Assembly: GCA_963758525.1 (NCBI GenBank)
Contig: CAVWVQ010000003.1
Location: 2,592,001 to 2,656,000 of the forward strand
DNA length: 64,000 nucleotides
Direction: 5' to 3'
Source of the DNA: an uncultured Phycisphaerales bacterium
GTDB lineage: Bacteria; Planctomycetota; Phycisphaerae; Tepidisphaerales; Tepidisphaeraceae
Both the position numbers and the translations under genes were made by a program. The notes under the pieces are model-generated. The model was not told the DNA's origin and did not search any database. It saw only the letters and a list, made by a program, of their open reading frames with translations. Positions 24,107 through 64,000 of the stretch are shown here, piece after piece (within the stretch, counting starts at the first letter, position 1; every line of letters begins with the position of its first letter).

Positions 24107-24167
24107 CCCTCGTTGCCTTCCCCTCAATTGACTGCCTTTTTAGCCACCGATACGATACCCCCTCGCT

Positions 24168-24258
24168 GGAGAGATGGCCGAGTGGCTGAAGGCGACGGTT
24201 TGCTAAACCGTTATACGGAGTCAAATCCGTATCCGGGGTTCGAATCCCCGTCTCTCCG
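24168..24258 (+). tRNA. tRNA-Ser (anticodon GCT), CCA not encoded
   Basis: Acceptor GGAGAGA/TCTCTCC, anticodon arm ACGGT-TTGCTAA-ACCGT, long variable arm ATACGGA/TCCGTAT, T arm CGGGG-TTCGAAT-CCCCG. Confidence 0.96.
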
Positions 24259-24395
24259 TTCTAAAACTGGTCTCGTTCGCAAATGGCTTAATTGAAGCAC
24301 TTTCGCAACGGTGGTATGCTGTTTATCCGCCGTTGTGAAACTTTTTGTGAAAGAATCGGCATCCATTCAGCCGGTTCTTTCGGAGCTTCAAGATT

Positions 24396-45175: not shown

Positions 45176-45394
45176 TTTTAGTGCCTCCGACACCGGACGA
45201 CGTCACCAACAATGAAATTGCATCGGTCGCTAGCGCGAGTTTACAAGTTATTCGCGGTTGTGCCGAAAACCGCGGGTTTTTGGGGGTAAATCTGTATGAC
45301 CTACCTCTGGCCCTGAGAGGACCTCACAACAGCGGTTTTCTCGACGTTTACAGACATTCCTGGCATTTTTTCGTCCGTAACTTGTAAACTCGCG

Positions 45395-46544: not shown

Positions 46545-47537
46545 TCATTCCCTCGGTGGACCGTAGTTCCGCCGGATGCGCGGGCGGTAGGGGGCCGTGG
46601 TCCCTTCGCCCGTCGCCACTTTCGGGAACACTTGGAGATGCACGACCACCTCGTCGTTCCATACCAGTGACGCCGCCGCCAGATCGCTTTCTTCCATCCG
46701 CCATTCCTTGCCGTCGCCGGGCGGATTGAAACCTTCCCACTTGCCGGCAATGGCACGGTCCAGCACCGCGCGGATCACCTGCCCCTCATCTGATCCCGGC
46801 TGCGCCGGATCAACTGGCGCTGCGAGCAGGTCGATTGCGTAACTGTCCACCAACGATTCCCAGAAATACTGGAGCGTGGTGTGACGGTCGAAGAGATCGA
46901 GCCCCTGGAACTTGCCGCCGTGAAGGACAGCCACGCCCACAGCGTCAGTCGGCAGTTGCAGGCTGCCGCGGAAGGCGCGGAGATCTGTCTCCCGCTTCGC
47001 ATATGCATCGCTCAACGCGCTGGTCGGGCTGCTGGAACCGGATGCTTCCAGAGATTGTGCCACTTCATTCCAGACCGCCCCCTGGTCGGCATCGTGCCGG
47101 CCGTCAGACTTGAGGTTCTGGTGCACGCGGGAGAGCTTTGCAGACCGCGTGCGATGGCTGGCGGACCTGCCGCTGGAGAATGACGGGCTGGCGTGACTCC
47201 AACGTCCCTGCTCGACACAGCTGACGGGAATCTTCAAGGTAGCCTGGGCGGGAACCAGCACATCGGTGTTGAGAATGCGGTTCTGCTTGGCCCCGACAAG
47301 TTCCTGGCCGTCCATGAGGAACACCCGCACGTCGAGCTTATTCTCCACTTGCAGCTCCGGTACGCTGCCGCTCTGGCTGATCTCCGTGATTACCACGCTG
47401 GCCAGCGTCTCCTGGCGCAGCAGCTCATACGGCGGCTGATCATGGGAACGGCCGAGTATTGGGACGAACTTGAGCTTCTGGCCCTGGCTGTGATCTGCTG
47501 AAACGGTTCTGGCACGGTGAATAATTGCCTCTGGCAT
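46545..47537 (-). CDS. ARPP-1/DUF6569 family protein
   Basis: ITEISQSGSVPELQVEN..FLMDGQELVGAKQNRILN, IPVSCVEQGRW, DQGAVWNEV. Confidence 0.85.
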   Translation of the reverse strand: MPEAIIHRARTVSADHSQGQKLKFVPILGRSHDQPPYELLRQETLASVVITEISQSGSVPELQVENKLDVRVFLMDGQELVGAKQNRILNTDVLVPAQATLKIPVSCVEQGRWSHASPSFSSGRSASHRTRSAKLSRVHQNLKSDGRHDADQGAVWNEVAQSLEASGSSSPTSALSDAYAKRETDLRAFRGSLQLPTDAVGVAVLHGGKFQGLDLFDRHTTLQYFWESLVDSYAIDLLAAPVDPAQPGSDEGQVIRAVLDRAIAGKWEGFNPPGDGKEWRMEESDLAAASLVWNDEVVVHLQVFPKVATGEGTTAPYRPRIRRNYGPPRE

Positions 47538-47576
47538 TGCGGCTCCTTTTTTGTGGCCCCCCCTTCAATAACAGAT

Positions 47577-47644
47577 GCTCCTGACAGCAGTGTGTCAGTG
47601 GGCTCTGCAAAGAAGTTTGGCGAATCCGTTTTGAGCGTTACATT
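47577..47644. promoter_or_regulatory. TGACA-N6-TGTCA box plus rightward sigma70-like promoter
   Basis: TGACAgcagtgTGTCA (47582-47597); TTGGCG-16 nt-TACATT. Confidence 0.65.
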
Positions 47645-47746
47645 TCGCTCACGGCTTATCGCGACCGAGGACAGCAGACCCGTTGGTGAGGGAGTCGAAC
47701 GGATTCGAGAACCCTGTGGGCAGCTGGTGGGCGAATCGAGGATGCT

Positions 47747-49357
47747 GTGATATTTCCCACGGATTGGATCAAGCAGGCCATCCTCCACCCCGAGCAGGCA
47801 GTCCGAGCGACCGCATTGCTGTACTTCACCGAGTCATTCAGCGATGACCCTGCGGTGATGCCGTTCGTGATCCAGGCGGTCGAACGATACGGCAAAGAAA
47901 CCTCCTTTGATCTGCTCCGTCACGCCGAATGGCTGTGCCAGACTCCGGCGACCGTTGATTGGCTCATCGGCCAGCTTCGCTGTGAGCTCGACACCACAGA
48001 CATCAACGAGGACAACCTGCGCTTTGCCCTCGCACTCATCCTGTGCCACGCCGAACCGCAACTGCTGGCCCACCGTTACGGCGAGATTATCGCTTCCCCT
48101 GCTTTTCCCGAGTCGCTCAGGGAACCGCTGCGTGAGTGTCTGAAAATGGAATTCTCCGACTGGCTGACGCTATGGAAGATGTTTGAGGAACTCGCCCGGC
48201 AGACGATGGAGAATCAGAGACTGTCGAGGGCCGACTACCACCGATATCACCGCATAATGCGGGCGCTGGCCCGCCACACAGCCGCGGACGCGGACTTGGT
48301 GCTGTCATTGTTGCGCGATTACCGAGGTCACGACCAGGCACTGGTGGTGTGGTTGGAGCCGTGTATCGTTGAACTTGCCGGGCGATTGCGGCTGGTCGAT
48401 GCGATCCCACTGATCCTTGAGCGAATCGACGCCGACACGGATGCCGTGGTGGACGAGATCAGCAACGCCCTCATCCGGATCGGGGGCGATGCCGTGGTAA
48501 CCGCCGTCATCAAGAGATGGCCTTCGGCCCGCACGAACTCCCGATACATACTGGCTGAGGCTCTGCAACACATCCACACAGATACGGCCCATAAACATCT
48601 GCTTGACTGCTTGAAAGCGCCTGACGATTGTGATCTGGAAATCTACATCACCAACTGTGCACTGGGGCACTTCAGCCAGCGAGCCAACGAGGCGGCACGG
48701 CAACTGTTGCTCGAATTCGGCGAGGAGGAACTGAGTGGCGAGCATTGGGATTTACGTTACCACCTGATTGCCGCCGCCACATTGATGGAGGAATCTTTCC
48801 CAGAATATGAGGCGTGGCATGAGGAGGCGGTGAGAAGCAACTACGGCAGGACGAAGCTCAGGCAGGACAAGCCCAGGCGATTGGCCGATGCCTTCACGGG
48901 AGACGAGGAAGCACCCTCACCTTCGAGCGGCGGCAGGAGCAGCAGTGTGCCTGCAAAACCGAGGCGCAAATTGGAGGTCCAAAGATCCAGTAGCGGTTGC
49001 GGCGACAATGCTGCGCCCACAAACCAGAACGAATCCGTCAGCACGATCTCTGTCTCGGCCGACCAACTCTGGAAAGATTTCCAGGAGAACGAAGTCGCGG
49101 CCAACATGAGATACAAGGGGAAAACCGTAAGGGTCGAAGGAAGCGTCGCAGCTATCAAGGTCAAATCCGGCAGGCCCCACATTTACCTGCGGAGTGAATA
49201 TGATGGCGTAGACTGCGCATTCACGGATTCTGACAATGCTGATCTGGCGAGGTTGAGCAAGGGCAGCCTTGTTGCCGTTCAAGGTGACTGCACGGGCATG
49301 GTTTACGGGATCGTGGTGGCGCTGGACAATTGTCGATTGATTCAGGGAAGTTCATGA
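47747..49357 (+). CDS. HEAT-repeat protein fused to a C-terminal OB-fold (tRNA_anti-like) domain
   Basis: ILHPEQAVRATALLYF, AIPLIL..ALIRIGGDAVV; C-terminal SADQLWKDFQENEVAANMRYKGKTVRVEG..GSLVAVQGDCTG. Confidence 0.7.
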   Translation: MIFPTDWIKQAILHPEQAVRATALLYFTESFSDDPAVMPFVIQAVERYGKETSFDLLRHAEWLCQTPATVDWLIGQLRCELDTTDINEDNLRFALALILCHAEPQLLAHRYGEIIASPAFPESLREPLRECLKMEFSDWLTLWKMFEELARQTMENQRLSRADYHRYHRIMRALARHTAADADLVLSLLRDYRGHDQALVVWLEPCIVELAGRLRLVDAIPLILERIDADTDAVVDEISNALIRIGGDAVVTAVIKRWPSARTNSRYILAEALQHIHTDTAHKHLLDCLKAPDDCDLEIYITNCALGHFSQRANEAARQLLLEFGEEELSGEHWDLRYHLIAAATLMEESFPEYEAWHEEAVRSNYGRTKLRQDKPRRLADAFTGDEEAPSPSSGGRSSSVPAKPRRKLEVQRSSSGCGDNAAPTNQNESVSTISVSADQLWKDFQENEVAANMRYKGKTVRVEGSVAAIKVKSGRPHIYLRSEYDGVDCAFTDSDNADLARLSKGSLVAVQGDCTGMVYGIVVALDNCRLIQGSS

Positions 49358-49457
49358 ACTGCTGCGGATGGCCAGGACCATCGCCGCACTGTGGTGCCCC
49401 ATGCCTCCCGCCACGCCTGAGGGCTTTTGCCACGACGCTGCTGGTAAACGAGCACAC

Positions 49458-49526
49458 GCTCCTGACAGCATTGTGTCAGCGACGCTCCCAGCAAATTTTG
49501 GCGAAACAGTTTTTCACCGTTAGGAT
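49458..49526. promoter_or_regulatory. TGACA-N6-TGTCA box plus sigma70-like promoter of the WYL gene
   Basis: TGACAgcattgTGTCA (49463-49478); TTGGCG-17 nt-TAGGAT. Confidence 0.7.
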
Positions 49527-49557
49527 GCCGCTTACCACTGACACAGGGGTGCTCGCG

Positions 49558-50598
49558 ATGGCTGCGGACTACTCTCGGATTCACCGGCTGCTCAAGATCC
49601 TCATGCTCATCCAGGGGCAGAAAGATTGGACCGCCAAGCGCCTGGCGCTGGAATGTCACACCACCGAGCGAAGCATCTACCGTGATCTCAAGATGCTGCA
49701 GGGAGCGGGCGTGCCGTATTTCTTTGACAAGGAGAATGGCGGATACGCCGTGCAGAGGGACTTCTTCATGCCGGCGGTGGCTCTCACCCTTGAAGAGTCC
49801 CTGGCCCTGGTGGCGCTGGCCGAGCAAGTAGGGGGGCGCGAGCAGGTGCCATTCACCAAGGCGGCCGCCAAGGCAATCGCCAAGATCCGCTGCAACCTGC
49901 CGCCGAAGGTGCAGCAGGAGCTGCAGAAGATCGACGATCTGGTCGCTATTCACCTCTCACCCGTGAATCCACCGGAGGGCACGGAAGATGTCTACGAGGT
50001 GGTGCGGGCGGCGCTGGCCAACCGCAAGACGCTGGAATGCAGCTACGACTCAATCGGCGCGAGTCAGAAGGGGGTTGATGGCAATGGCGGTGTGAAAGAG
50101 ATCTTTTTGTTCAGGCCGTACACGCTGCTGTTCAGCCAGCGGGCCTGGTACGCGCTGGGGCACCACGATGGCAGAGGTGCCGTGCGGTGTCTGAAGCTGA
50201 ACCGCTTCACACGCTGCAAATCTACCGAGATTCTTTATGACATTCCCAAGAGCTTTGCGGTCGGCAAACATCTGGGCAATGCGTGGCGGATGATCCGGGG
50301 GAGCAAGTCATACGATGTCGAGTTGCGGTTCGATGCCGAGTTCGCCGAGACCATTGCCGACACGCACTGGCACGCAACGCAGGAAGTGATCTGGAACGAC
50401 GACGAGTCAATCACGTTCTGGTGCGAAGTAGACGGTTTGGACGAAATCGTGTGGTGGATCCTGGGGATGGGCCCGCACTGCGTGGTGAAGAAGCCGGCGG
50501 AGTTGGCGAGCCAGGTCAGTGGTCTGGCCGCGGCGATCGTCAAGCAGTACGACGCGAAGCCCTCCAGCAAGCCCCGCAAAAAGATAACTTCACTGTGA
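49558..50598 (+). CDS. wHTH-WYL-WCX transcriptional regulator (YafY/PafBC-like)
   Basis: RIHRLLKIL..LALECHTTERSIYRDLKML; PYTLLFSQRAWYALG..RCLKLNRF; EIVWWILGMG. Confidence 0.92.
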   Translation: MAADYSRIHRLLKILMLIQGQKDWTAKRLALECHTTERSIYRDLKMLQGAGVPYFFDKENGGYAVQRDFFMPAVALTLEESLALVALAEQVGGREQVPFTKAAAKAIAKIRCNLPPKVQQELQKIDDLVAIHLSPVNPPEGTEDVYEVVRAALANRKTLECSYDSIGASQKGVDGNGGVKEIFLFRPYTLLFSQRAWYALGHHDGRGAVRCLKLNRFTRCKSTEILYDIPKSFAVGKHLGNAWRMIRGSKSYDVELRFDAEFAETIADTHWHATQEVIWNDDESITFWCEVDGLDEIVWWILGMGPHCVVKKPAELASQVSGLAAAIVKQYDAKPSSKPRKKITSL

Positions 50599-50662
50599 CG
50601 CGGTGCTGTCAGAGAGCCGCGGCACCGTGCTGCTGGAACATAGAATTAGGCAAGGAAGCCTC

Positions 50663-50944
50663 ATGGCGCAGAAGCGGCAAGAAATCACTGGTGCGAAGAC
50701 CATGTCTGACGAGCGGATATGTCGGTGGGCGATGCTGGCAACGATGCGCACTCTCCGGCTGTCGTTGCGGAAGGGGAGGCCGATCAGTCTGCCCAACCTG
50801 CTGCGCCTGTTCCAGCGAAGATGCGCCGAACGAGCTCTCGCTGGCAACCAGGCACGTGCTCATCACCGGCTGGAGAGTTGGTATCGCCAACATCAGCCGT
50901 TTCAGCAACTGGCCCGACGGTGGTGCTGCCCGCCGCCTCGCTGA
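50663..50944 (+). CDS. Small hypothetical protein, 3' end possibly clipped by the IS remnant
   Basis: AAGGAAG RBS just downstream of the palindromic box at 50596-50611. Confidence 0.4.
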   Translation: MAQKRQEITGAKTMSDERICRWAMLATMRTLRLSLRKGRPISLPNLLRLFQRRCAERALAGNQARAHHRLESWYRQHQPFQQLARRWCCPPPR

Positions 50945-51017
50945 GGCGGACTTCAAGGCTCTGCGCGAGGCCCGAAAGACGATGTTGTTTGAGCGTCTGC
51001 AACAGGGAAGATCTCAT
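50925..51017 (-). pseudogene. N-terminal remnant of an IS21 IstB helper ATPase
   Basis: MRSSLLQTLKQHRLSGLAQSLEVRLSEAAG resembles the IstB N-terminus. Confidence 0.55.
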
Positions 51018-51170
51018 GGATTGAGCTCGGGTACTGAAGGTTGTTGGGAAGCGGTTCAAACTTGACGCTTCCGTGCCTTCGCAACGCGGAATTCTGGCGA
51101 TCCGGTGAAATTTCCTAAGATCGTCGTCCCAGTCGTTTTTTACCCTTCTCGCTGCTATTATTGCCGAGCT

Positions 51171-51557
51171 ATGACCCGAATTCCCGATGAAGTGATCCGC
51201 CGCTTTGCGTACAAACGCCATCTGCCACTCGGGGATGCAAGAGGTGTCTTTTCGGACTTGGAGGACTTCCTTGATGCGGCGTCACGCCGCAAGATGGTCC
51301 CGTCCGTGGCCGTTGATGCAGCTTGGCACGAGTTCATTCTTCACACACGGCAGTACGCACAATTTTGTCAAGACCGTTACGGCTGCATGGTCCATCACGT
51401 CCCGACTTCTCCGTGCTCTCTCAACAATGTGGGCGAGATCACAGAAGATTCAACTGCCGGGAACGTTGAATGCGATTCGGATTGTGCTTCTGACAGTCCA
51501 AGCTCACCAATGGAATCGTCATCGTTGAGAACGCGATTGGTCGAAACTGCTAGATAG
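51171..51557 (+). CDS. GRDP-like (glycine-rich-domain/TIGR04222-like) small protein
   Basis: VPSVAVDAAWHEFILHTRQYAQFC..YG.MVHHVP motif. Confidence 0.7.
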   Translation: MTRIPDEVIRRFAYKRHLPLGDARGVFSDLEDFLDAASRRKMVPSVAVDAAWHEFILHTRQYAQFCQDRYGCMVHHVPTSPCSLNNVGEITEDSTAGNVECDSDCASDSPSSPMESSSLRTRLVETAR

Positions 51558-51691
51558 CTACCCCAGAAATTGGGTGTGAGCGTGCGGGTTCATTCGGTAA
51601 CGCGCTGCCGATGGCTTGCAGCAATTCCACCATTGGGATTACCAGATAGGAAGATTTCCAACCTGCTGTTAACGCATCGGAATCTGTATCG

Positions 51692-52816
51692 TCAGCTGCT
51701 TGGCTGAGCCGGGAGTGCCTTTTGTTGAATCCTTCTGAACAGGTGCAGCAGAGCAGTGAGGGCAGGGGATCGCTCAAACTCATGTGCGCGGTAAAGCATA
51801 CCCATCGGGATGCGAATCTTCTGCAGCTCCTTCGTCAGCAGTCCCTTGCTCAGCTTGCCTTCCGTCTTTAGCGGTGGGTCGTACGATGGCGGCCTTGCAG
51901 CGTGGGCCCAATCCACGAAACTCTTTGTCGCCAGCATCAATGCCGGATCGGGTTGAAATCGCAACACCTGAACCTGGTTCATACTGTCATGTATCTTTGG
52001 CCTTCTCAATGTGAGACGCTCACAACGATCAGAGCCGAGCGACTCGACCAACCACGACCGCGTCACGCCGGGAAGTGGCATATAGGCTAGCCATTGCTCT
52101 ATTTCAACAGGACCTACCGTTAATCCGATCTTCGAAACCAAGGCCGCATTGAGGAGTACAGCCATCTGTTCCTCCCCGATCTTTTCGAAATGAAACCCCT
52201 CCGGAATTCCGACAAGCTCTCCGTTCGTTTCGACGAAAGGCGATAAGAAGCAATCGCAAGTACTAAACTCTGCCTTCACGGCTCCAAAGACATGCCGCGA
52301 GTGGACGGGAGTGATTCGAACCTCCAACTCCGGATTTAACCGCGTGAGATGATACCGAAGGTCCGCCGCGAGACGCAGCATCATGTGCACTGATCCAATT
52401 TCCACCCGCGGCTTCACCTTCGAGGATTGCTCTTCGATTTGCTTCTGAAAGAGCCGTAGGTGTTCCGCTGCCCACCGAGCAAAATGTTCCCCGACAACGG
52501 TTAGCTCGTAAGGTTGTCCGCTACGTCGCTGTTCGGCGACCGTTACCTCCGTATTTAACACCTCCGACAGGAGTCTGGACAGCTTAGTGACACGCCATCG
52601 GACAGATGACGGATCGATGTTCAGCAACACACCTAACTCGCGGGGCGTTTTATTCAGATATAAGTGAGAGGCCAACAGAAGATCGGCGACATCCATCGTC
52701 CCCAGTTTTTCCAAAGCAATCAGGTTCAAGTCGGCCGCCATCGAAGGCCGTTCCGTCGCTGGCGACGTTGGTTCCACAGCCAAGGTCCGCGACGATTTCC
52801 GCACCCGATTTCTCAT
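51692..52816 (-). CDS. Divergent LysR-family transcriptional regulator (start may be 52741)
   Basis: N-terminal HTH (LLNIDPSSVRWRVTKLS..RRSGQPYELTVVGEHF), LNPELEVRI; divergent from the operon. Confidence 0.6.
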   Translation of the reverse strand: MRNRVRKSSRTLAVEPTSPATERPSMAADLNLIALEKLGTMDVADLLLASHLYLNKTPRELGVLLNIDPSSVRWRVTKLSRLLSEVLNTEVTVAEQRRSGQPYELTVVGEHFARWAAEHLRLFQKQIEEQSSKVKPRVEIGSVHMMLRLAADLRYHLTRLNPELEVRITPVHSRHVFGAVKAEFSTCDCFLSPFVETNGELVGIPEGFHFEKIGEEQMAVLLNAALVSKIGLTVGPVEIEQWLAYMPLPGVTRSWLVESLGSDRCERLTLRRPKIHDSMNQVQVLRFQPDPALMLATKSFVDWAHAARPPSYDPPLKTEGKLSKGLLTKELQKIRIPMGMLYRAHEFERSPALTALLHLFRRIQQKALPAQPSS

Positions 52817-53071
52817 CCCCGGGGATTGTATGCCGTGTCGGCGGGTCGCGCAAGCAGGAATTACCTACTGAATTAAAGATTACTCTGTGTATTTTGTGTT
52901 CGCAAGGTTTATTCTGCGGGGGCCGTCAGCGAGAGGAGGCCCTTGATGTCGCTGGATCGAATGCGTGTAAATTCGCCTGAAGTTTCCCAGACACAGAGGG
53001 ACAGCTCCACCCACCGGTGGTCCCAGTACACGTTGGTGCCGCTCGCTCTTTCGTCGTTCAGAGTTTTTGGC

Positions 53072-53905
53072 ATGAGTACTCCATCCACGATCGACATCAA
53101 GGCCCCGATGTTGTTCCACGACGGATCATCACCGCCGACCGCTGTAGTTGTTTTCGATGCGTTCCGGTGTTCGTCCACGCTCCTGGCTTGCTTCGCTCGC
53201 GGATTGCACGCGGCGGTATTGTCGGAGAAGGGCCAGTCGGCGGCCGGTACGACGATCGGTAAGGCGGAGCAACTAGCACAAGAGCTGAAATGCAAATTAA
53301 TCCTCGGCGGCGAACTGCATGGGCGTGCCGTCAGCGGAGGTGTTGTCGGCAACTCACCGATCGAGTCCTGCACAGCAATTCTTGACGACAGAAAGCTTCT
53401 GCATTTTCAGTCTACTAACTTTGCCCGGTCGTTCAACAAGATCACGGACTACGTACATCAGCAGCGGGAGGGTTTGGTGGAGATATTCGTCATTAGCTAT
53501 GCGAACGCCGCCATCACAGCACAACTAATTCAGAGTTCTGGATACGAACGCATCATCGCTGTTTGTGGTGGTTTCTTCGATTGCATGGCCATCGAAGATA
53601 TGACGCTCGGTGGCAGGTTCATTAGCGAGCTCGGGATCGACGACGGGGATCTCGATGACGATTCGCTGGCGATGCTTGCGTGCTACCGTGCTCTAAATCC
53701 GACGCCTGCCCTTGTGGGTGGGGGTTGGGCAGGACGAGTTCTCCGGCACATTGGTAAAGCCGAGGACATCTGGGACGTCATCGGCACGTCGCGGTTGCCA
53801 CAGCATCAACGCCGCCGCATGTCGAACTTAATCTTGCAGGTTAGATGGATTCACGGCACCCCGATGATTCAAGCGGTGGCCAGTCAACTCCTAACGAGAG
53901 TGTAG
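53072..53905 (+). CDS. 2-phosphosulfolactate phosphatase (ComB)-like protein
   Basis: VVVFDAFRCSST, LGGELHG..GNSP, STN, SYANA, IEDMTLGG. Confidence 0.75.
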   Translation: MSTPSTIDIKAPMLFHDGSSPPTAVVVFDAFRCSSTLLACFARGLHAAVLSEKGQSAAGTTIGKAEQLAQELKCKLILGGELHGRAVSGGVVGNSPIESCTAILDDRKLLHFQSTNFARSFNKITDYVHQQREGLVEIFVISYANAAITAQLIQSSGYERIIAVCGGFFDCMAIEDMTLGGRFISELGIDDGDLDDDSLAMLACYRALNPTPALVGGGWAGRVLRHIGKAEDIWDVIGTSRLPQHQRRRMSNLILQVRWIHGTPMIQAVASQLLTRV

Positions 53906-53907
53906 AG

Positions 53908-54321
53908 ATGAATTGCTTCATCATCAAGAAGTCCTTCCACTTTCACGCGGCCCACCGCAACGAAGATCTTTCTAACGATAGATGCTTCTCAATTCACGGT
54001 CATACGTACCACGTAGACTGTCACTTCGCTTTCACAAAAGCCGACTCCCACAGTGTCACGATGCTATTTTCTGATATTGAGAAGCAGGTACTCCCGGTGC
54101 TGGCTCCATTCGAGCACAGCTTCATCGTGAATCGGGTAGACCCCCTATATACGGTGTTGAGGGACCAAGGCATTAAACTCTGTGTCCTCGATCATCCCTC
54201 ATCTGCGGAAAATCTCGCACAACTATTCTTCGATCGAATACGGGCGAACACTGAGCTGAACCTAGTTCGGTTAGACCTTCAGGAGACGGAGAGTTCTGTC
54301 GTTTCCTATTGTGGTTCCTAG
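53908..54321 (+). CDS. queD: 6-carboxy-tetrahydropterin synthase (QueD/PTPS-I family)
   Basis: FHAAH, CFSIHGHTY (CxxxHGH), EHSF, PSSAENLA, LQET. Confidence 0.85.
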   Translation: MNCFIIKKSFHFHAAHRNEDLSNDRCFSIHGHTYHVDCHFAFTKADSHSVTMLFSDIEKQVLPVLAPFEHSFIVNRVDPLYTVLRDQGIKLCVLDHPSSAENLAQLFFDRIRANTELNLVRLDLQETESSVVSYCGS

Positions 54322-54928
54322 GTACAGCAGGCCGAAGGACGTGGCCGAAATGAATCCTCTTTTGCTGATACCGAAGTGGTTGTACATGGCACGCAAACAT
54401 GGCGTGCCGAAGCCGGAGGCGTTCTGCTTGAGCACCATCACAAGGGCGGGAATGCCGTCTTCGCGGATGATGTTGGTAACCGAATGTCTTGACGGGGAGC
54501 TAATCTTTTGCACTGACTGTCGGAGCAATAAGGGTCAAAACATATCTGATAATCCCGCGGCGGCGGCGTTGCTCTATTGGCAGCCAATTAGTCGCCAAGT
54601 GCGGCTCGAAGGAACGATCGAACCCGCACAGGATTCACTTGCAGACGCAGATTTCAATAGAAAAACGGCTGGTCAGCGGTTGATCATTTCGCTGGGCATC
54701 CAGAGCAGCACGCTGCGTCGCTACCGCCGTCTTGCTTTTGACGTTTCTGACAAGCTGTCAGTGATGGCGGACGGTGCTCAGCTGACTAGGCCGTGGTACT
54801 GGAAGGCATATCGCCTGCGAGCTTCACGCGTCGAATTTTTCCGTGGCGGCTCGCATCGGCTGAATCGTCGGCTCTCGTTCCTATTAGATGAGCGCGGCCG
54901 ATGGAAAGCTCAACGTCTATATCCCTAG
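54311..54928 (+). CDS. Pyridoxamine 5'-phosphate oxidase (PdxH/PhzG)-like FMN protein, divergent
   Basis: PEAFCLST..GMPSSRMML, SNKGQNISDNP, YW..RQVRLEG, RPWYW, VEFF, RLYP. Confidence 0.8.
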   Translation: MVPRYSRPKDVAEMNPLLLIPKWLYMARKHGVPKPEAFCLSTITRAGMPSSRMMLVTECLDGELIFCTDCRSNKGQNISDNPAAAALLYWQPISRQVRLEGTIEPAQDSLADADFNRKTAGQRLIISLGIQSSTLRRYRRLAFDVSDKLSVMADGAQLTRPWYWKAYRLRASRVEFFRGGSHRLNRRLSFLLDERGRWKAQRLYP

Positions 54929-54963
54929 CCACCGATAAGGTAACGGCCATCCATCAGGAGTTT

Positions 54964-55935
54964 ATGATCGACGCTGTCCAGTTAATCTCGCACGCGGTGT
55001 TTGATCTGCCAGACGCCGGTGACACGGTCGCAATCCTTTGCCATTTCAACCCGTGCCTCTACATATCACCCGTCCGGAATCTCGCAGCCACCCTCGATTG
55101 GCTTTTGGCGGAAGAACTTCCCACGTATGCAATCGAGCTGAGGTGCGGTCATAGCGTATCTGCACCACCCGTCTTACCAGTTGGCCATCGGAAGGTGCTT
55201 CAACTTACCAGCGACTCCTGGATGTTCGTGAAAGATAATCTTTGGAATGTTCTTGCGAAAAATCTACCGGCTCACTTCTCGAACATAATCTGCGTCGACG
55301 CTGACGTGAGCTTGAGGACACGGGGTTGGAAAAAGACCTTAGCAGATCGCTTAGGGTCATTTCCAGTCGTTCAGCCGTTTAGCCGCGGGGTTTGGCTTGA
55401 TTCCATTGGCAATGTGTTCAAAGAGAAATACTCGTGCGGTTATGCGGCCAACTGCGGCCTCCCGACGCCGCATCTGTCAAAGGAATATCACTGCGGATTT
55501 GCGGTCGCCGTGCGGCGAGATTTCTGGGCGGAGACCGGCGGCTTTTTCAATAGCCCGGTTGGGGGTGGGTCGTTGTTCCTTATGTCAGCTACGCTCGGCG
55601 TAGAAAATGAACTCGAGCCGATCCTTTCCAGTGCAGCTCCAGCGTTTGCTCGCCAGTACCGGGAGTGGGCTGACCGAGTTAGATGTTGGTCCCACCAAAG
55701 GCTGGGGCACGTGGACGGCGATGCTTACCACCTTTGGCACGGATCCCGGGCCAAGCGTCGCTACTTTGACAGATTTGAACTACTCAGCGGCTTCGATCCA
55801 TTCACGGATGTCGAAAGTAAGCCGTCGGGACTCCACGAATGGAGCCCAGTGGCTCGGACGACTAAGCAGACTATGTTGCGGAGAATTGAGGACTACTTCA
55901 AAGAACGCGAGGAAGACGAGCACGTCGTTCCCTGA
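54964..55935 (+). CDS. Putative GT-A glycosyltransferase
   Basis: HFNP, KDNLWN, VDAD (DxD), VVQPF, GFAVAVRR..GGF, HLWHG. Confidence 0.6.
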   Translation: MIDAVQLISHAVFDLPDAGDTVAILCHFNPCLYISPVRNLAATLDWLLAEELPTYAIELRCGHSVSAPPVLPVGHRKVLQLTSDSWMFVKDNLWNVLAKNLPAHFSNIICVDADVSLRTRGWKKTLADRLGSFPVVQPFSRGVWLDSIGNVFKEKYSCGYAANCGLPTPHLSKEYHCGFAVAVRRDFWAETGGFFNSPVGGGSLFLMSATLGVENELEPILSSAAPAFARQYREWADRVRCWSHQRLGHVDGDAYHLWHGSRAKRRYFDRFELLSGFDPFTDVESKPSGLHEWSPVARTTKQTMLRRIEDYFKEREEDEHVVP

Positions 55936-56403
55936 GACCACGGCACGGTCAGGGAAGCTATCGCATTCCATTTGTTATCTGGAGGCACCGGGAAGGCCAC
56001 CCTACCAGCCCGGCCGATCCCGACCGGGGTCTTCTTCTTTGGCGATACATTGAGACTTGCGTAGTCGAATTCCCCCTGGCCTCCGGATCGGCCATCGACT
56101 ACTGGACTGCTACCCTGTTCGCCGGAGTTTCGGCTCATCGATCCCCAGCGGCTGGGTCGGGCGAAGGTCCAGCCAGGCCCGAGCCATCGCAGACAGCCGT
56201 GCCGTAGCTGACATTCGCCTCTGCTCGTGATACGGCTGCGTCAGCCAAGGCAGATTCGGTCGTCAGGGTACCTCGGAGATTCTTGGACGCGCGCCGGATC
56301 AATCGCCAATAAACTCCGAATTATCGGGAACCCGGTTTCACTTCCAACGTCTAACCCTCCGTTCCAAGTCTCCGAACCAAGCTCGCACTGAAAGGGCTCG
56401 ATC

Positions 56404-59400
56404 ATGTTCGCACCTCGCGTGACGGCGTCTTGTTTGGCCCTTGCACTGGTTGTCGCGGGATTGCTCCTGGCGGATGAGCCGGGCAACGCACCCGGGCCGA
56501 AGGATCCGTGTTATCTTGGGCATGTTTCCACGGACAAACCGATCTATCGACCGGGAGAACGGGTCTGGCTGCGCGGCGTCGTCCTGGGGGCGCTGGATCA
56601 CAAGCCCTTGCCGGAGGGACAATCAGCTGATGCCGTTTTGCAGATCACCGGCCCCAGGGGGGAGCAGCTTTTCACGACAAATGGGCAGATTCAAGAGAGC
56701 GTGGCGGGGTTCGCCTGGGATGTGCCTGCCGACGCGGCTGGCGGGCAATATGCGGCCGTCGTCAGTTTTCCCTATAGCGGGTTCCCACCGGCAAAACGCA
56801 TTTTTGACGTGCGAGCCTATCGCGCTCCGCGGCTCAAGGGTGAGATTATCTTCCTTCGCGATGGATTCGGGCCGGGCGACATGGTCAGAGCATCGCTCCA
56901 TGTTGAGCGCGCCGAAGGCGGCCTGCCCGCCGGGGCAAAAGTGTCGGCAACCGCCATCGTCGATGGCCAAGACGCGTACTCGGGCCAGACGGTCATTGAT
57001 CCGGCCGGGAATTGCTCGGTTGCGTTTACGCTGCCGGCCCGGATCGAGCGCGGCGACGGGACGCTCTCGCTGGCGGTAGCCGATGGCGGCGTGGTCGAGC
57101 CGATCGCCAAGACGATCCCAATTCTGCTGAAGAGCGTTGATCTGGCGATCTATCCCGAGGGAGGCGATCTGGTCGCCGGGTTGCCTTGCAGGGTCTATGT
57201 CGAAGCGCGCACCACCGCGCAGAAGCCGGCGGACCTGGTGGGACAGGTGATCGATTCGCATGGCAACGCCGTGGTCGATTTTGCTACCGAGCATGAGGGG
57301 CGCGGCCGATTTATCCTCACCCCCAAAACCGGTGAGAGCTATGCGATCAAGCTTTCGCAGCCCTCGGGCATCACCAGGATCTACCCGCTCCCCGCGGCCA
57401 AGACCGAGGGCGTCGTGCTGCTGGCGTTGGACGATATGACCCGGGGCGGCGAGCCGATCCGACTCAACATCGCGGGGACCGCCGCCGGATCATACGATGT
57501 CAGCCTTTCCAAACGGCAGACGGAAGTGGCGTCCGCCCCCGTCAAACTGCTGCCCGGCGTGGCCGCGCAAGTGGTTCTCACGCCGCCTTCATGGGCGGAC
57601 GGCGTGCTGGTCGCGACCGTAAAGACCGCCGACGGCACTCCCATCAGTGAACGGCTGATCTTCCGCCAAAGCGCCCGGGCCATCCACGTGAAGGTGACAG
57701 CGGATCGACCTTCCTTCACGCCCGCCGACCAGGTGAACATCAGCGTCACCACCACGGACGACGCCGGAAAGCCGGTGCCGGCGGTCGTTGGCGTCACCGC
57801 CACCGACGAAGCCGTACTGCGCATCCCAGAAAAGCGCGATCGCGCCCCGCGGCTGGGGGCGATGGTGCTCCTGGGAAATGACGTGCGTGACCTGGCCGAC
57901 GCCGGGGCCTATCTCGACCGGGCTGATTCCAAGGCACCGCTGGCAACCGATTTGCTTCTTGGGACGCAGGGATGGCGCAGGTTCGCGACGGTCGATGCGA
58001 AAAAGTTCATCGCCGCCTACGGCGATCCCGCCCGGCGCGCCTGGGAGATCTGCTGCCGCCGCAACCGATGTTCTGGAATGTTGCCGGTGGCCGGGGCGGA
58101 GGCGGTCGGTTCTTTGCAGTGACCGCCGCCCGGGCTCCTGGGCCGATGGTACGTGAGCAGAACGCGGCGGAAGACGCAAAGCTCAACGATCGCGCTGCAG
58201 AGAACAGGCCGCCTGCCGCCCCCGCGATGGTCGACCAGTCGCAAGCCGGGCAACAGGTAAGGAAGGACCTGCAATTGCAGCCGGCGGCTGACATGCCGGC
58301 GACACAGCCGGCAGCAATGCCGATTGCGATGCCGCCGCCGCTTCCCGTCGTTCGCATCTATGCCCACGATCTCCAGCCCAATCGATCCAGCAGCGATCGC
58401 ACCGATTTCACCGAGACACTGTACTGGGCCGCCGGCGTAAAGACCGACGAAAAGACCGGGACGGCAACACTCTCCTTCCATCTCAATGACTCGGTCACCA
58501 GCTTTGCCATTACCGCCGACGCATTCGATGCTTCGGGAGCACTGGGCGAAGGCAAGACGATCATCACCTCCTCTAAGCCGTTCTACGTTGAGCCCAAACT
58601 GCCGCTGGAAGTGAGCGTCGGCGATCTGATTCACCTCCCGATCGCGGCCGTCAATAACACGCGGAGCAATCTGGATCGCGTCCGTCTCACTCTCAACGGC
58701 GGAGCCGGGCTGAGCATCTCTCCGATCCAGGAGTTTGATCTTCCGGCTGGCCAGCGCGTGCGGCAATTGGTTGATCTGCGCGTTGGCGCTGCGCCGGGAA
58801 CCACAAAGGTCGTTGTCGATGCCCGCGCCGGCGACTTTACCGATCAGGTAACGCGCACGCTGGCCATCGTGCCGCTGGGATTCCCGACAGAAATCAACAA
58901 GGGCGGGCTGGTCAGCTCCGCCGGCAGCGTGGTCGACGAAATCCAGGTTCCCCAGTCTGTGGTGGCGGGAAGCATGAAAACCTCGGCCGCCCTCTACCCC
59001 ACTCCATTGGCCAATCTCACCGAGGCGTTGCAGGGGCTGTTGCAGGGGCCAAACGGCTGCTTCGAGCAGACCACCTCGACCAACTATCCGCTGGTCATGG
59101 CCGACCAATATTTCACGACCCATGCCGGGGTCGACCCATCGCTCATCGCCCACAGCAACGATCTGCTGGATAAGGGATACGCGCGACTGACCAGTTTTCA
59201 GTGCAAGAACAAGGGGTATGAATGGTTCGGCGAAGACCCCGGACACGAATGCCTGACGGCGTACGGGCTGCTTGAGTTCACCGATATGTCCGCCGTTCGC
59301 AGCGTCGATCCCGCGATGCTTCAGAACACACGCACCTGGCTGCTGGCCCGACGTGACGGCAAGGGAGGCTTCACCCACGAACGGCGTGCCCTGCATACCT

Positions 59401-60488
59401 GGGTCACCGATCCCGACTGTGCCAACGGCTATTGCACATGGGCCCTGCTCGAAACCGGCCAGAGCGGCCTCGATACAGAGGTGAAGTGGCTCGCGGAGCA
59501 CGCACAAACCGATCCCAACAGCTATGTCAAAGCCCTGGCCGCCAGCTCCCTGTACCTCGCCGGCGACAAGGCCGGTGCGCGGCAGTTCATGGATCGGCTG
59601 GCCGACCTGCAGGATAAAGACGGCCACGTTCGCGGAGCAGTCACCACCGTCGTCGGCAGCGGCGGAGACAGCCTGGAAATCGAAACCACCTCGTTGGCGA
59701 CACTGGCGTGGCTGCGCGAGCCGGCGTACGCCGCACATGTCGAGTCGGCCATCCGCTACCTGGCCGACTCCTGCAAAGCCGGACGATACGGCTCGACGCA
59801 ATCGACCGTGCTGGCGCTGCGCGCGATCATCGCCTATGACAAAGCCCGCGCCCATCCGACCGCCGCCGGCAAAGTGCTGCTTTTTGTCGATCATCAAGGC
59901 GTGGGCGAAGCGATCACCTTTGACGCCAGTTCCACCGGCGCGATCAAGCTCCCCGACTTCTCAGCGCAGATGACGCCCGGCGAACACGCTGTCGAATTGC
60001 GCATGACCGACGGCTCCAGTCTTCCGGACGCCGTCACGGTGTCATTCAACAGCGTGACGCCCGTCTCTTCCAAGGGGTGCCCACTGACGATGACCACGGC
60101 GCTTGCCGATCCGCAGGTGGCCGAAGGAGCGCCCACCGAGGCGCGGGTGACGATCACCAACCGGTCGGTCGCGACGCTCCCCACTCCGATCGCGATCGTC
60201 GGCCTGCCCGGCGGCCTGGAAGTGCGGCACGATCAACTCAAGGAACTGGTGAAAGCCGGCCGCATCGCCGCCTACGACGTGCGCGGCCGGGAGGTGATCC
60301 TGTATTGGCGTGACATTCAGTCCAAGCAGACCATCGAGGTCCCGCTCAGCCTGACCGCTGCCATCCCCGGTGAATACACCGGCCCGGCCAGCCGTGCGTA
60401 CCTGTATTACTGCGATGAATTCAAGCAATGGCTGCCGGGAATGAAAGTCACCATCATGGCCAAGGCCTCGCAAGCCCAGCGGGGATGA
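56404..60488 (+). CDS. Alpha-2-macroglobulin family (MG2/TED) protein (frameshift near 58040)
   Basis: Signal peptide, STDKPIYRPGE, YPEGGDLVAG, DLLLGTQGWRRF, RTDFTETLYW, thioester GCFEQ, AYLYY. Confidence 0.9.
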
Positions 60489-60586
60489 CGCAACTCTTTT
60501 CTTTACTCCGCGACGATTCACCCGTCTGACGGATGCGTTCTCAAGGAAGCTCGCGGGCCTGGATTTCTCATGTAGACTTCCCTCTG

Positions 60587-61285
60587 GTGAAACGCCGCTT
60601 TTTCAACGTGCTGGCCGGGGTATCACTGCTATTGTGCGTCACAATGGTGACGCTGTGGGCGCGGAGCTACCGCGTTGCAGACAGTTTTGCGGTGAAAGTT
60701 CCTCCGCATTCAATCGCACCTGCCACACATCAGCCTTTCATCGCCTGCGAGCTGGATTCATACCGGGGTATCGTGAGGTTCATGGATGTTGATGTTCGGT
60801 TCGGCATTGCCTACTGGCGAACTGGGATTCGATGGGGCTGGGGAACAGTTCAACCGCAGGATGCACCAAGGTTCTGGACCGACATTATTCCCCTGCGTCA
60901 GCAGCACACCTGGCTCCATGCTGGCTTCGGGTATGCCGCCGGGCGCGCACGCGGATTTTACTACTATCCTGTCGGCGCGGTGGCCGCGCCTGATTGGGTT
61001 CTCGTAATACTCACCGCGGTAATTCCATGTCTATGGGTGGACCGCTTCCGGCGTCGAGTGAGTCGCTTGAGGGGAGGGCTTTGCCCTTCATGCGGTTACG
61101 ACCTCCGTGCCACGCCTGCCCGCTGCCCCGAGTGCGGAACGGCCACCGCGGGTGCGGGAATCTCAAACTGCCCCAATATTCGCCCTCGAACGGTTTCGCT
61201 GCAGGGGTGGTCGACGCCGGCGGGCCATTCAAAGGCTGAAGATGGGCATTGGCCATCTCGGGGAAAGGGGATGTGCCGTCGCTGA
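60587..61285 (+). CDS. Membrane protein with C-terminal Zn ribbon
   Basis: KRRFFNVLAGVSLLLC..LWARSY; GLCPSCGYDLRATPARCPECG. Confidence 0.75.
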   Translation: MKRRFFNVLAGVSLLLCVTMVTLWARSYRVADSFAVKVPPHSIAPATHQPFIACELDSYRGIVRFMDVDVRFGIAYWRTGIRWGWGTVQPQDAPRFWTDIIPLRQQHTWLHAGFGYAAGRARGFYYYPVGAVAAPDWVLVILTAVIPCLWVDRFRRRVSRLRGGLCPSCGYDLRATPARCPECGTATAGAGISNCPNIRPRTVSLQGWSTPAGHSKAEDGHWPSRGKGMCRR

Positions 61286-61721
61286 GCATTGGCCGCTTTA
61301 GCACTGCCTATAAACCCATATGATTTTGGCACTTACATCACGGCCCCGTCTCAGACGCTCAAAACAGGGGTACTCGCGGGCCATCTGAGCCCCGCAAACT
61401 GCCTCAGCGAGGCGGGAAATCGCAGCAAACCACATTGTGGCGAGGGCCTGGCATCACCAGACGCTATGGCTCGCTGCAATAAACCTCTAATTCAAAAACC
61501 GGTTTTTAGATTATCCGCCCGGGTCGAGTTGCCGGATGAACCAGAGTTAGCCATAGAAGTAGAACGACGGGGGGGCTAACGGGAACCGCCGTCGCGGCTG
61601 GTCACGCGCCCGATCCGTCCCGATCGGGTTGTTGAGAGTTCTCACAGTTTTCAGCGGTCGCTGCCACAACGTTGTCAGTGGCGTTGTGCATACTCCCTTC
61701 ATCAATTGAAAGGAGCCCGCG

Positions 61722-62315
61722 ATGGCAAAGAGATCGAACGCAATGGCGCGGTTGAAGCAGTTTCTGAACCGCAGTGGCTGGCAGTACATGACCGACAAGG
61801 AGCAGACGCTTCGCGGCCTGATGAGCGGCGACAACGGCCAGTGGAACTGGATCGCCACACAAACGGATGATGACCGGTTTCTGATGTTTTGCGCAAGTTC
61901 CCCCGTGAAGGTGCCGCCAAAGAAACGTCTCGCGGTCGCGGAATATCTCACTCGCGCCAACTGGTGTTTCCAGTTCGGCAACTTTGAAATGAACTGGTCT
62001 GACGGGCAGGTGGTGCTCCGCACGTCCATTCCCATCACGGCGGGGTCTGCGCCACCCGACGCGATCGAGCACCTGGTCTATGGCAACTGCTCGTTGATGG
62101 ACCGTCACCTGCCGGGCTTGCTGGCAGTGAGCATCGGCAATGTGAAGCCGGCGCAGGCGATAGCGGACGTGCAGCGCGGCCCTGATGTGCCCAGCGCGGA
62201 AGAGAACTCCGCAGTGACGGCTGGCGATTGCCCTCAGACACCCGATGCCTCGACGGTGATTCCGCGGCCGGTGTCGCCGAGCGGGCTCGATGGATTTTCC
62301 GCCGGCAACAACTGA
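61722..62315 (+). CDS. YbjN domain protein
   Basis: AAGGAG RBS; KRLAVAEYLTRANW..GNFEMNWSDGQV. Confidence 0.8.
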   Translation: MAKRSNAMARLKQFLNRSGWQYMTDKEQTLRGLMSGDNGQWNWIATQTDDDRFLMFCASSPVKVPPKKRLAVAEYLTRANWCFQFGNFEMNWSDGQVVLRTSIPITAGSAPPDAIEHLVYGNCSLMDRHLPGLLAVSIGNVKPAQAIADVQRGPDVPSAEENSAVTAGDCPQTPDASTVIPRPVSPSGLDGFSAGNN

Positions 62316-62481
62316 GCCGGGGCTTGAACCCGCCCCGGAGCGGAGGCATAGCCGGTATGTGTGTTCCCCAGGCCTTCCGAGTCAGCGAGCTTGTATATGG
62401 TGACGTGAACTGACCAGTTCCTCCACGGTCGTGGCACGCTGCTTCAAGCGACGGGCGACGGAAAGTCTTTTTCTGATTCAC

Positions 62482-63482
62482 TCATTGTTTGCCTCCCGGA
62501 TGTCCAACAGTCCAGTTCTGGACGGACCTTAGCAGACCAATCGCGGTGTCAATTAGGTCATCTATTAGCTTGGCAGTGAGCGTACCCGTAAGCGGAAGCC
62601 TGTCTCCAGTTTTCAGCAGAGGAATATCCTGCACCAGCATCGTTTGCTCGGTAAATTCCTTGTCCACAAAACCGCTCTTGTGAATGAGCACATTTCGGAC
62701 GGCGGCCGCATACTGAAGTCCTGGCGAATCCAAAAGTTCGATGATTGCGTCAGCATGCACATCAAACGCGAGATGATAGGCAAGCCGTATGTCTGGAAGA
62801 GATCGAAACGACACCTTCCGGATGCCCGATAGAAGGTCCCCCATTTTCGCTCGGACATCAAAACCGTATCGCTCCAACTCTCCAATCGGAATGCTTTTCG
62901 CGTCATTTTTGCATGCCCCTGTTCTATTCCGGCTCGCTTGCTTTCGTTTGAATATTTCCCTCGCGGTTGCCCCTTCAACGATCCCAGCCTTGATGGCCGT
63001 GCATTCACGGCGTCGATCCAAACGTCTTCCGCCAAGCTTTCGAAAACCGTCCACGCTTGAATCAGCATCGCGCGATAAAAGTACCTGATCGCATCGTCAT
63101 CAAAAAACCGCGCGAATTCCTGCTCTATGGTTTGCCAGATGATGGGCGTCAAAATGATTACGTTGTTCACGACTGGCGGCACATAGCCAGAGGCTACTGC
63201 CTCCCAAATCCTTTTATCGTACTCGCCGACTCCCTCGCCCTCATGGCGTGGCAATTGACGCATCGTGAATTGGAATCGTTCTTCATAGATCGAAAGTTGT
63301 GCGGGAAATAAAATAAACTGCTCAAGCCCATGCAGATTCTCAAGGAGAGCATCGGCGGAATGGCGAAACAGTTCGTCGGGCTCTGGTCGCGGCTTGCGCG
63401 TTGTTTCTCCAACCAGACGAATCGCCGCAGCGAAGTCGGCAACTTTGCCGACGCGGTCTGCTGGAAGTTCCTTTTTGCTCAT
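62482..63482 (-). CDS. HEPN-domain protein (frameshift near 62910)
   Basis: LIQAWTVFESLAED and the RxxxxH motif RNVLIH(KSG). Confidence 0.65.
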
Positions 63483-63718
63483 AGCGCGCATTTTCGCGCG
63501 GGGATCACCTTCGTCAAATATATTGTTGCCCAAAATAGATTTCGTCCAAATCTCGAAAATCGCAGTTCATCACTGACCAGGTGTTGTCACTGTGGCCAGA
63601 TACACATCGCCCGTAACCGAGATTCGGTCTCGCGTCATTCATGAAACCCTTCAGAACTTGCAACCGGCAGACCGGCAGGGCAAGCTGAAGAAGAGGCAGC
63701 CCTTCGGGGAAGGTCGCA

Positions 63719-64000
63719 ATGTACCACGACACAGAGGGCCTGCGCTTTTCGCCCACCGACCTGATCGTCTACCTGGAGGGTGAGTTCGGCTCATGGATGG
63801 ACCGGTCGTATCTGGAGCAGAGGCGAGAAATGAACGCACCGGCGACGGCCGCAGGCGCGGCGCTGGCGTATCGGCCGGATGGCGACAGCGCGGAAATGAA
63901 GCTGATCAAGGTCAAGGGAATAGAGCACGAGCAAGCATTCCTGCAGTCGCTCAAGACAGCGGGTTACAGAATTGTCGAGGTTATCCAGGGCGATGACGCC
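63719..64000 (+). CDS. TM0106-family RecB-like nuclease, N-terminus (runs off window)
   Basis: Manual translation MYHDTEGLRFSPTDL..FGSWMDR..KGIEHEQAFLQSLK. Confidence 0.7.
   Translation, partial: MYHDTEGLRFSPTDLIVYLEGEFGSWMDRSYLEQRREMNAPATAAGAALAYRPDGDSAEMKLIKVKGIEHEQAFLQSLKTAGYRIVEVIQGDDA

Follow-up and report, generated by a model that had tools for sequence, protein, structure and literature searches.

A repeated box around a wyl gene

Here we analysed a stretch of 64,000 nucleotides (nt) from an uncultured Phycisphaerales bacterium (the window, C3:2592001-2656000 of the genome G000 that holds it), and specifically an 18-bp inverted repeat that recurs around a gene for a WYL-domain regulator, wyl. 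The first-pass annotation had listed five palindromes of the TGACA-N6-TGTCA type as a putative WYL regulon, and all five 16-mers are present, at 47582, 49463, 50596, 61662 and 63574. They are copies of a single box, STGACA-N6-TGTCAS, and with up to one mismatch the TGACA-N6-TGTCA pattern occurs in the window at exactly these five places, whereas 1.27 ± 1.05 occurrences are expected by chance and none of 100 shuffled sequences reached five. To score the boxes we used a matrix built from 28 sites of other genomes, none of them from G000, which itself yields STGACA-N6-TGTCAS; the ranks given below are those in the whole 6.47-Mb genome.

Box 1 (47581..47598; score 23.6, rank 4) lies between a divergent cargo gene, ARPP-1 (46545..47537, minus strand), and an OB-fold gene. 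Towards ARPP-1 it is followed 10 nt later by the predicted -10 element TATTGA (47565..47570, minus strand), and on the other side by a predicted sigma70-type promoter, TTGGCG-16-TACATT (47617..47644, plus strand), whose -10 is 40 nt from the box. This promoter precedes a 536-aa open reading frame (ORF) with a C-terminal tRNA_anti-like OB fold (47747..49357, plus strand). Box 2 (49462..49479; score 24.6, rank 2) stands upstream of wyl as a second copy of the divergent promoter; its far side has no -10 at 10 nt, and its near side faces the predicted wyl promoter TTGGCG-17-TAGGAT (49498..49526, plus strand), with the -10 at 41 nt. The wyl gene itself (49558..50598, plus strand) encodes a 346-aa regulator, and its TGA stop codon (50596-50598) overlaps box 3 (50595..50612; score 15.9, rank 14), as had been claimed. 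A weak -10 candidate, CACCGT (50623-50628), and then a small ORF for a 93-aa basic helical protein (ORF 50663; 50663..50944, plus strand) follow. The TGA of the box often doubles as the stop codon of wyl or another upstream gene, also at C3:807211 of G000 and in loci L013, L142, L146, L093-L095 and L098.

The remaining two boxes, both on the plus strand, are box 4 with CATACT as its -10 (61661..61694; box 61661-61678, -10 61689-61694; score 17.5, rank 8), ahead of a YbjN-family gene (61722..62315, plus strand), and box 5 with TACACA (63573..63606; box 63573-63590, hexamer 63601-63606; score 17.2, rank 10), ahead of a TM0106-like RNase_H_2 ORF (63719..64000, plus strand, extending past the window end) and an SF1 helicase ORF. 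The four hexamers proposed 10 nt after TGTCAS were thus read correctly. The nuclease and the helicase (63719 to C3:2659168 of G000) are two ORFs here; two orthologues lie in frames of about 1150 aa. As for the identities of the neighbouring genes, Pfam supports ARPP-1, the tRNA_anti-like OB fold, HTH_11-WYL-WCX and YbjN, and places RNase_H_2 in the ORF at 63719, while the HEAT (47747-49357) and HEPN (62613-63533) assignments found no match in Pfam or PADLOC. A hairpin or terminator reading of the repeats was rejected: a terminator scan of 47300-51300 was empty, and the fixed spacing to a -10 suits a DNA site.

The wyl product has the class A domain set of winged helix-turn-helix (wHTH), WYL and WCX domains (Pfam HTH_11, WYL and WCX, all above cut-off), and its PDB sequence matches are exclusively entries of Caulobacter DriD (E about 2e-4). 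R38, R42, W197-Y198, R210, K213 and R216 are conserved in at least 90% of 40 homologues. Judged by their spacing, R38 and R42 would be two recognition-helix arginines, the counterpart of DriD R37/R41 and PafB R46/R50, the PDB alignment stopping short of the HTH. In DriD and PafB this arginine pair reads guanines. Across the loop for single-stranded DNA (ssDNA), RCLKLNR aligns with RSWRLDR of DriD, one arginine being a lysine here, and ssDNA is the likely signal by analogy with DriD and PafBC. A PafB/PafC-type heterodimer on a non-palindromic site was not found: each cassette has one wyl gene and the box is symmetric.

Distribution of the box and its promoters

The closest relatives of this WYL protein belong to Tepidisphaerales and other Phycisphaerae, and the box travels with them. 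Upstream of wyl, a box with at most one mismatch was found within 250 nt in 7 of 28 relatives (4 of 32 loci being left out as cut off), as against 0-2 at spacers 3-5 and 7-10; spacer 5 gave 0 of 28 and spacer 7 was at background. Further boxes occur right after wyl or 1-2.6 kb on. Across 121 genomes of the family we counted 175 exact boxes in the 51 with the WYL gene (WYL+) and 25 in the 70 without it (WYL-), while the spacer-9 control gave 14 and 19, respectively. At least one exact box was present in 43 of the 51 WYL+ genomes versus 20 of the 70 WYL- genomes, and with G000 and the unpublished genome G283 left out there were 170 boxes in 50 WYL+ genomes and 24 in 69 WYL- genomes. In a quick WYL tree, the proteins of the genomes richest in boxes are scattered over several branches whose separation is weakly supported.

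Within G000 the picture is one of position. The bare 10-bp core has six perfect copies genome-wide at spacer 6 versus 0-5 at the other spacers from 0 to 15, which is barely above background; its signal lies in clustering and position and not in genome-wide number. Five of the six perfect copies are intergenic (gene calls made in this analysis), and 7 of the 19 sites scoring at least 15 fall in a 62-kb stretch of the island described below, against 0.18 expected, the bounds of this stretch having been set after the fact. Ranks 1, 3, 7 and 16 are taken by the promoter of a paralogous cassette, a site between an HNH gene and the BREX pglW/pglX cluster, and two sites just past the window. These last two (C3:2666227 and 2670075, L033) stand ahead of small unannotated ORFs, the first consisting of three half-sites in a row. 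About 1% of G000 genes have a box scoring at least 10 within 300 nt.

The spacing between box and -10 is conserved where the box faces cargo genes. Among the small-ORF promoters with a box, TA occurs at 10 nt in 12 of 23, and in at most three at any other spacing from 6 to 15. The ARPP-1 homologues have TATTGA, TATTCA, TATTTA or TACATA at 10 nt, with a TA start in all four full-length ones examined, these loci having been fetched via WYL or the box. For YbjN, three of eight homologues (G229, L002 and L003, all divergent from wyl) combine a degenerate box (scores 5-10) with CATACT at 10 nt, and the other five lack this arrangement. At these cargo promoters, whose start sites are predicted, GTC lies 12 nt before the -10 and there is no -35, as in PafBC-type sigma adaptation. 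In the PafBC motif, tGTCgg(N10)tA(N3)T, GTC and the -10 are likewise 12 nt apart (PMC8635444), and SiwR also acts from -26 (PMC10693628). The wyl side is built differently: TA-N3-T lies 39-41 nt from the box in 8 of 14 cases and at 10 nt in none. The idea of PafBC-like promoters is supported for the small ORF, ARPP-1, YbjN and cas promoters, where the 10-nt spacing is kept, and not for wyl and the 47747 gene, where the -10 is at about 40 nt. Conservation upstream of orthologues, which had been suggested as a check, is similarly divided, with a box at ARPP-1 (4 of 4), YbjN (3 of 8) and the small ORF (23 of 34) and none at TM0106 (0 of 2).

CRISPR-Cas operons of type I-G are the main recurrent class of target. 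The type I-G protein Csb1 is encoded in 25 of the 51 WYL+ genomes versus 8 of the 70 WYL- genomes. We picked operon heads by Csb1 alone, fetching 24 of the 33 positive genomes and leaving out nine already seen; three heads were cut off. Of the 14 WYL+ genomes, 12 had a box scoring at least 10 no more than 600 nt from the first cas gene, versus 2 of the 7 WYL- genomes, and the twelve boxes in WYL+ genomes have TA at 10 nt in ten cases and CA-N3-T in the other two. The two WYL+ misses were G431, where wyl is a fragment, and G408, where the contig may end short of the operon head. In G000 itself the type I-G cas3 (C3:1788909) has a box scoring 13.7, followed 10 nt later by TAGAAG. A perfect box (C3:4810578, L035) separates the HNH gene from the type 2 BREX pglW/pglX cluster, pglW being called as two ORFs. 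Neighbours seen once or a few times were cas4-cas1, type I-C cas3, HIRAN, DUF932, hsdM, ResIII-HNH, an SNF2 helicase, and HD and EVE proteins.

Repair genes behave otherwise. The best box scores ahead of recA (4.8), lexA (1.7), uvrB (-2.1), ssb (-6.5) and priA (2.1) of G000 are all below 5, on which a core repair regulon was rejected for this genome, and LexA is present. Single boxes near recA (G095), lexA (G185) and ssb (G004) in relatives are 200-570 nt away or inside a gene, and do not recur. The stress or anti-phage cargo that had been envisaged is borne out insofar as the targets are island and defence genes; the five repair genes lack a box, and the main class, type I-G CRISPR-Cas, had been missed. 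One gene of about 200 aa and no known function stands behind a box both in G185 (L105, near lexA) and in G034 (L216), which belong to one genus; its G000 orthologue has no box.

The small gene, the island and dispersed boxes

ORF 50663 had been regarded simply as a gene downstream of a site. A box does precede family members at 23 of 34 loci (11 of 22 among those outside the matrix training), yet its status as a conserved family had been overlooked: by sequence conservation it is a real gene, with identities of 0.53, 0.56 and 0.35 at the three codon positions, the third varying most. Homologues come after a box or wyl in many relatives. One database yielded 43 matches to the family, and a second one 214 clusters at 50% identity. 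Of 401 genomes of the class, 26 encode a member; the family is centred on Phycisphaerae, and in a sample of 251 from the phylum no strong match came from another class. Neither ORF 50663 nor its relatives matched Pfam, NCBIfam, PHROGs or PADLOC. The protein, about 23% arginine plus lysine, is predicted to fold into four helices (mean confidence, pLDDT, 79.8). Foldseek gave nothing at E<=0.001, a wide fold search returned generic helical bundles only (best Z 8.0, root-mean-square deviation 3.3, 73 aligned residues, within the usual range for helical models), no HTH fold matched, and the Atlas held unnamed clusters only or no usable match. Type I-G cas genes follow within 2.5 kb at 12 of 34 loci, the small ORF often being the first gene of the cas operon. 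Our guess is that the product might be a nucleic-acid-binding feedback factor or a Cas accessory, made first on induction. At one locus (L001:11134-18022) homologues of MukF, MukE and MukB come after wyl and the small ORF, with a second wyl-small ORF pair 8 kb on.

G000 has a second cassette (C3:805050-807489) with ARPP-1 (C3:805050-806043), a perfect box (C3:806086, the paralogue of box 1), a gene for a WYL protein 63% identical to that of the window and another copy of the small ORF; a weaker box lies on the stop codon of this wyl gene. The paralogous ARPP-1 (L034:5050-6043) is split into two ORFs. Outside the box, the promoters at 47582 and 49463 are 51% identical to each other and 73% and 54% identical to C3:806086, versus 21-38% for other pairs. 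The five sites are not all separate, as had been implied, because 47582 and 49463 are duplicates of one promoter. We infer that the window is a mosaic, in which the OB-fold gene stands in the place that wyl has in the paralogous cassette and wyl lies behind a second promoter copy; the promoter at 47617..47644 is, from its homology to that of the second wyl, likely the old wyl promoter. Elsewhere in G000 there are a broken wyl remnant without a box (C3:4753022-4753492) and an exonuclease-WYL fusion gene (C3:80029-80913).

The island region begins at a tRNA-Ser and adjacent integrase (24167..25772, nominally plus strand), which is likely its left end, and extends beyond the window, where genes for type I restriction and GmrSD follow; no clear repeat of the tRNA end was found at the right. 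Behind ARPP-1 on the minus strand (41298-46450) lie a nucleoside deoxyribosyltransferase-like ORF (weak PADLOC effector match), then an AAA_16 ORF, with a weak HEAT match; these may be a defence operon controlled by box 1. At 52943-55935, downstream of ORF 50663, lies an AT-richer cluster whose domains are 2-phosphosulpholactate phosphatase, PTPS and pyridoxamine oxidase; it has no box ahead and no PADLOC match. At 56404-60488, still inside the island region, is an alpha-2-macroglobulin gene in two ORFs with host-like GC.

Nine relatives in the family have 6-26 exact boxes each, against 0-2 for their spacer-9 controls; in G034, G042, G409, G026 and G397 there are 10-26 per genome versus a background near 1. 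G000 shows no such excess. Boxes inside coding sequence make up 11 of 22 in G026 (including gyrA and priA), about 11 of 26 in G397 and at least 6 of 13 in G042 (gene calls made in this analysis). Internal or stop-codon boxes without a -10 (G026, G397, G042, G409 and G185) occur in gyrA, priA, cysNC, a fliI-like gene and transketolase. A codon-probability test on the intragenic boxes (median 0.004) was dropped as evidence, because any chance match scores as low, and counts versus controls were used. The outer bases of the dispersed boxes, counted by eye, are of the G type in 33 of 44 half-sites of G026 and 14 of 14 of G411, both with G-type wyl operators, and of the C type in 25 of 26 of G042, 14 of 14 of G440, 19 of 20 of G034 and 34 of 38 of G409; the G034 operator is mixed and none was found ahead of wyl in G397. 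A lineage effect could account for the flank match across the six genomes, the genera looking closely related. Such an excess in housekeeping genes is unlike an ordinary regulon and may indicate a second use of the site.

A candidate WYL operator

From these comparisons we consider it very probable that the adjacent WYL protein and its paralogue use the box as their operator, and rather likely that the whole model applies, in which both proteins activate island and defence genes through it. A WYL homodimer would read one GTC per half-site with R38/R42 and, on a nucleic-acid signal, likely ssDNA, would activate type I-G CRISPR-Cas operons above all. At cargo promoters the downstream GTC, at about -26, would stand in for a -35, as happens with PafBC and SiwR. 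Towards wyl, the promoter would be an ordinary one with the centre of the box at about -61, the class I CRP position, and the box would serve positive or negative autoregulation. The mobile cassette would consist of ARPP-1, YbjN or another gene diverging from a box, wyl on the other side, and a second box ahead of the small ORF, with or without cas genes behind it, and remote boxes would recruit genes such as the YbjN gene of the window. The proposed role of WYL as co-ordinator is supported in that the motif tracks WYL across relatives; the WYL protein of the window cannot be named sole regulator, because the paralogue has the same box. In a bolder version, which we regard as doubtful, the cassette would be a dedicated type I-G inducer in Tepidisphaerales, with the box at -26 of cargo and -61 of wyl, the basic microprotein, produced first from the induced promoter, acting as feedback brake or Cas accessory, and, in lineages that kept the WYL, the 10-26 promoterless boxes, many of them within essential genes, forming a chromosome-wide docking or decoy array by which the threshold of the trigger is set or self DNA is marked.

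Several observations weigh against this activator model. No box lies within 250 nt upstream of wyl in 21 of 28 relatives, 11 of 34 small ORFs lack one, and so do the third WYL gene and the type I-C cas3 operon of G000. The -10 at 50623 in the window is poor, ARPP-1-type hexamers lack the last T, and in the high-count genomes TA at 10 nt occurs on 13 of 182 box sides. A low-threshold scan of G000 found no excess at 10 nt (15 versus 4-18 at other spacings), so weak sites are not trustworthy and an extension of the regulon from them was not used. The box of site 63574 is missing ahead of both TM0106 orthologues found, which makes it the least secure of the five, and for this site alone a chance match may hold. 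Moreover, the sampled genomes are kin, so that p-values overstate, and many assemblies are incomplete.

The same box could instead belong to a repressor, with WYL covering the -35 region until released by the signal, in the manner of BrxR and CapW. In favour of this, BrxR too has defence genes as its targets (PMC9122601), the box spans about -40 to -23, and ARPP-linked WYL factors have been proposed as negative regulators (PMC9503650). A repressor, however, would not need an exact 10-nt spacing, which is nonetheless kept at the small ORF, ARPP-1, YbjN and cas promoters, the BrxR box lies downstream of its promoter (PMC9122601), and the protein carries WCX, a domain of the activator class, and matches only DriD in the PDB. 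We prefer activation because the spacing is exact and the BrxR box is placed downstream, and consider repression unlikely. Chance matches, or mere relics of promoter duplication, could be argued from the bare core being near background genome-wide and from three of the six perfect copies being homologous promoters, but box and spacing are kept across dozens of genomes with controls, and the 121-genome counts and the cas-head test rule this out for the motif as a whole, leaving it a negligible probability.

Another protein might bind the box with WYL as a mere neighbour, for example the product of the small basic ORF or some core chromosome-binding factor. This would fit the several relatives with many boxes inside housekeeping genes and no promoter geometry, the slight surplus of spacer-6 over spacer-9 sites in WYL- genomes (25 versus 19) and the box at two of seven WYL- cas heads. 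It is nevertheless quite improbable: all 10 genomes with at least five boxes carry WYL and none of the 70 WYL- genomes reaches that number, the box occupies fixed places around wyl, in the genomes read by eye the dispersed boxes share their flank type with the wyl operator of the same genome, and the small protein shows no HTH fold match. Still less probable is a DNA-damage regulon of the PafBC or DdaA kind that includes repair genes. It would share the -26 geometry and could claim the single boxes near recA, lexA and ssb, which are the distant or intragenic cases described above, and it conflicts with the low repair-gene scores and the presence of LexA in G000.

Parts of the proposed activator system are already published, namely WYL activators with palindromic operators (DriD, SiwR and DdaA), control of CRISPR-Cas and restriction by DdaA, and the ARPP-WYL pair. 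SiwR of Mycobacterium smegmatis is likewise a WYL activator on a palindrome over -26 that controls adjacent genes, but it reads GGA and has dinB-like targets, whereas here the triplet is GTC and the targets are defence cargo and CRISPR, with remote sites (PMC10693628). In mycobacteria, PafB and PafC bind a non-palindromic site as a heterodimer and have about 150 repair targets (PMC8635444, PMC6789036), unlike the single protein and palindrome found here, where the tested repair genes have no box. DriD of Caulobacter crescentus, like the regulator predicted here, binds as a homodimer to a palindrome that covers the -35 region and keeps a set distance to the -10, and it also binds its own promoter; its motif, CGAC-N7-GTCG, is one base shorter between triplets than GAC-N8-GTC and was not the operator found here, spacer 7 being at background, and its targets are didA, recA, recJ, bapE and dnaG (PMC10853764, PMC13004042).

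DdaA of Moraxellaceae resembles the present system in having a WYL activator motif ahead of CRISPR-Cas and restriction systems, and it began as a mobile local regulator whose regulon spread later; it differs in phylum, in having replaced LexA for repair genes and in its motif, CGWCA-N5-TGWCG, and no small leader gene is described in the available text (PMC12392091). That operator was not found here either, the matrix being different and spacer 5 absent upstream of wyl. BrxR, CapW and Sll7009 are also WYL factors at defence loci with inverted-repeat operators, but they repress, the BrxR box lying downstream of its promoter (PMC9122601, PMC6789036), and form a clade apart from the activators (PMC12392091). 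The ARPP-WYL and ARPP-HIRAN neighbourhoods place ARPP beside a WYL factor, with HIRAN and YbjN-like chaperones in the same network; the main-text passages of that account mention neither an operator nor a promoter geometry, and no small ORF or tie to CRISPR (PMC9503650). In the literature searched, which did not cover subscription journals and supplements, we found no description of this motif, of a WYL regulator of this lineage or of the small gene.

The analysis yields a predicted operator for a WYL regulator in Planctomycetota, a phylum in which our searches found none described, together with its promoter geometry and a list of targets. It also brings to light a conserved small gene that can lead cas operons and that is missed by family libraries. 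A homodimer on a palindrome at the exact spacing of PafBC would join the activation modes of DriD and PafBC, and the WYL cassette is a candidate switch for the expression of type I-G CRISPR-Cas.

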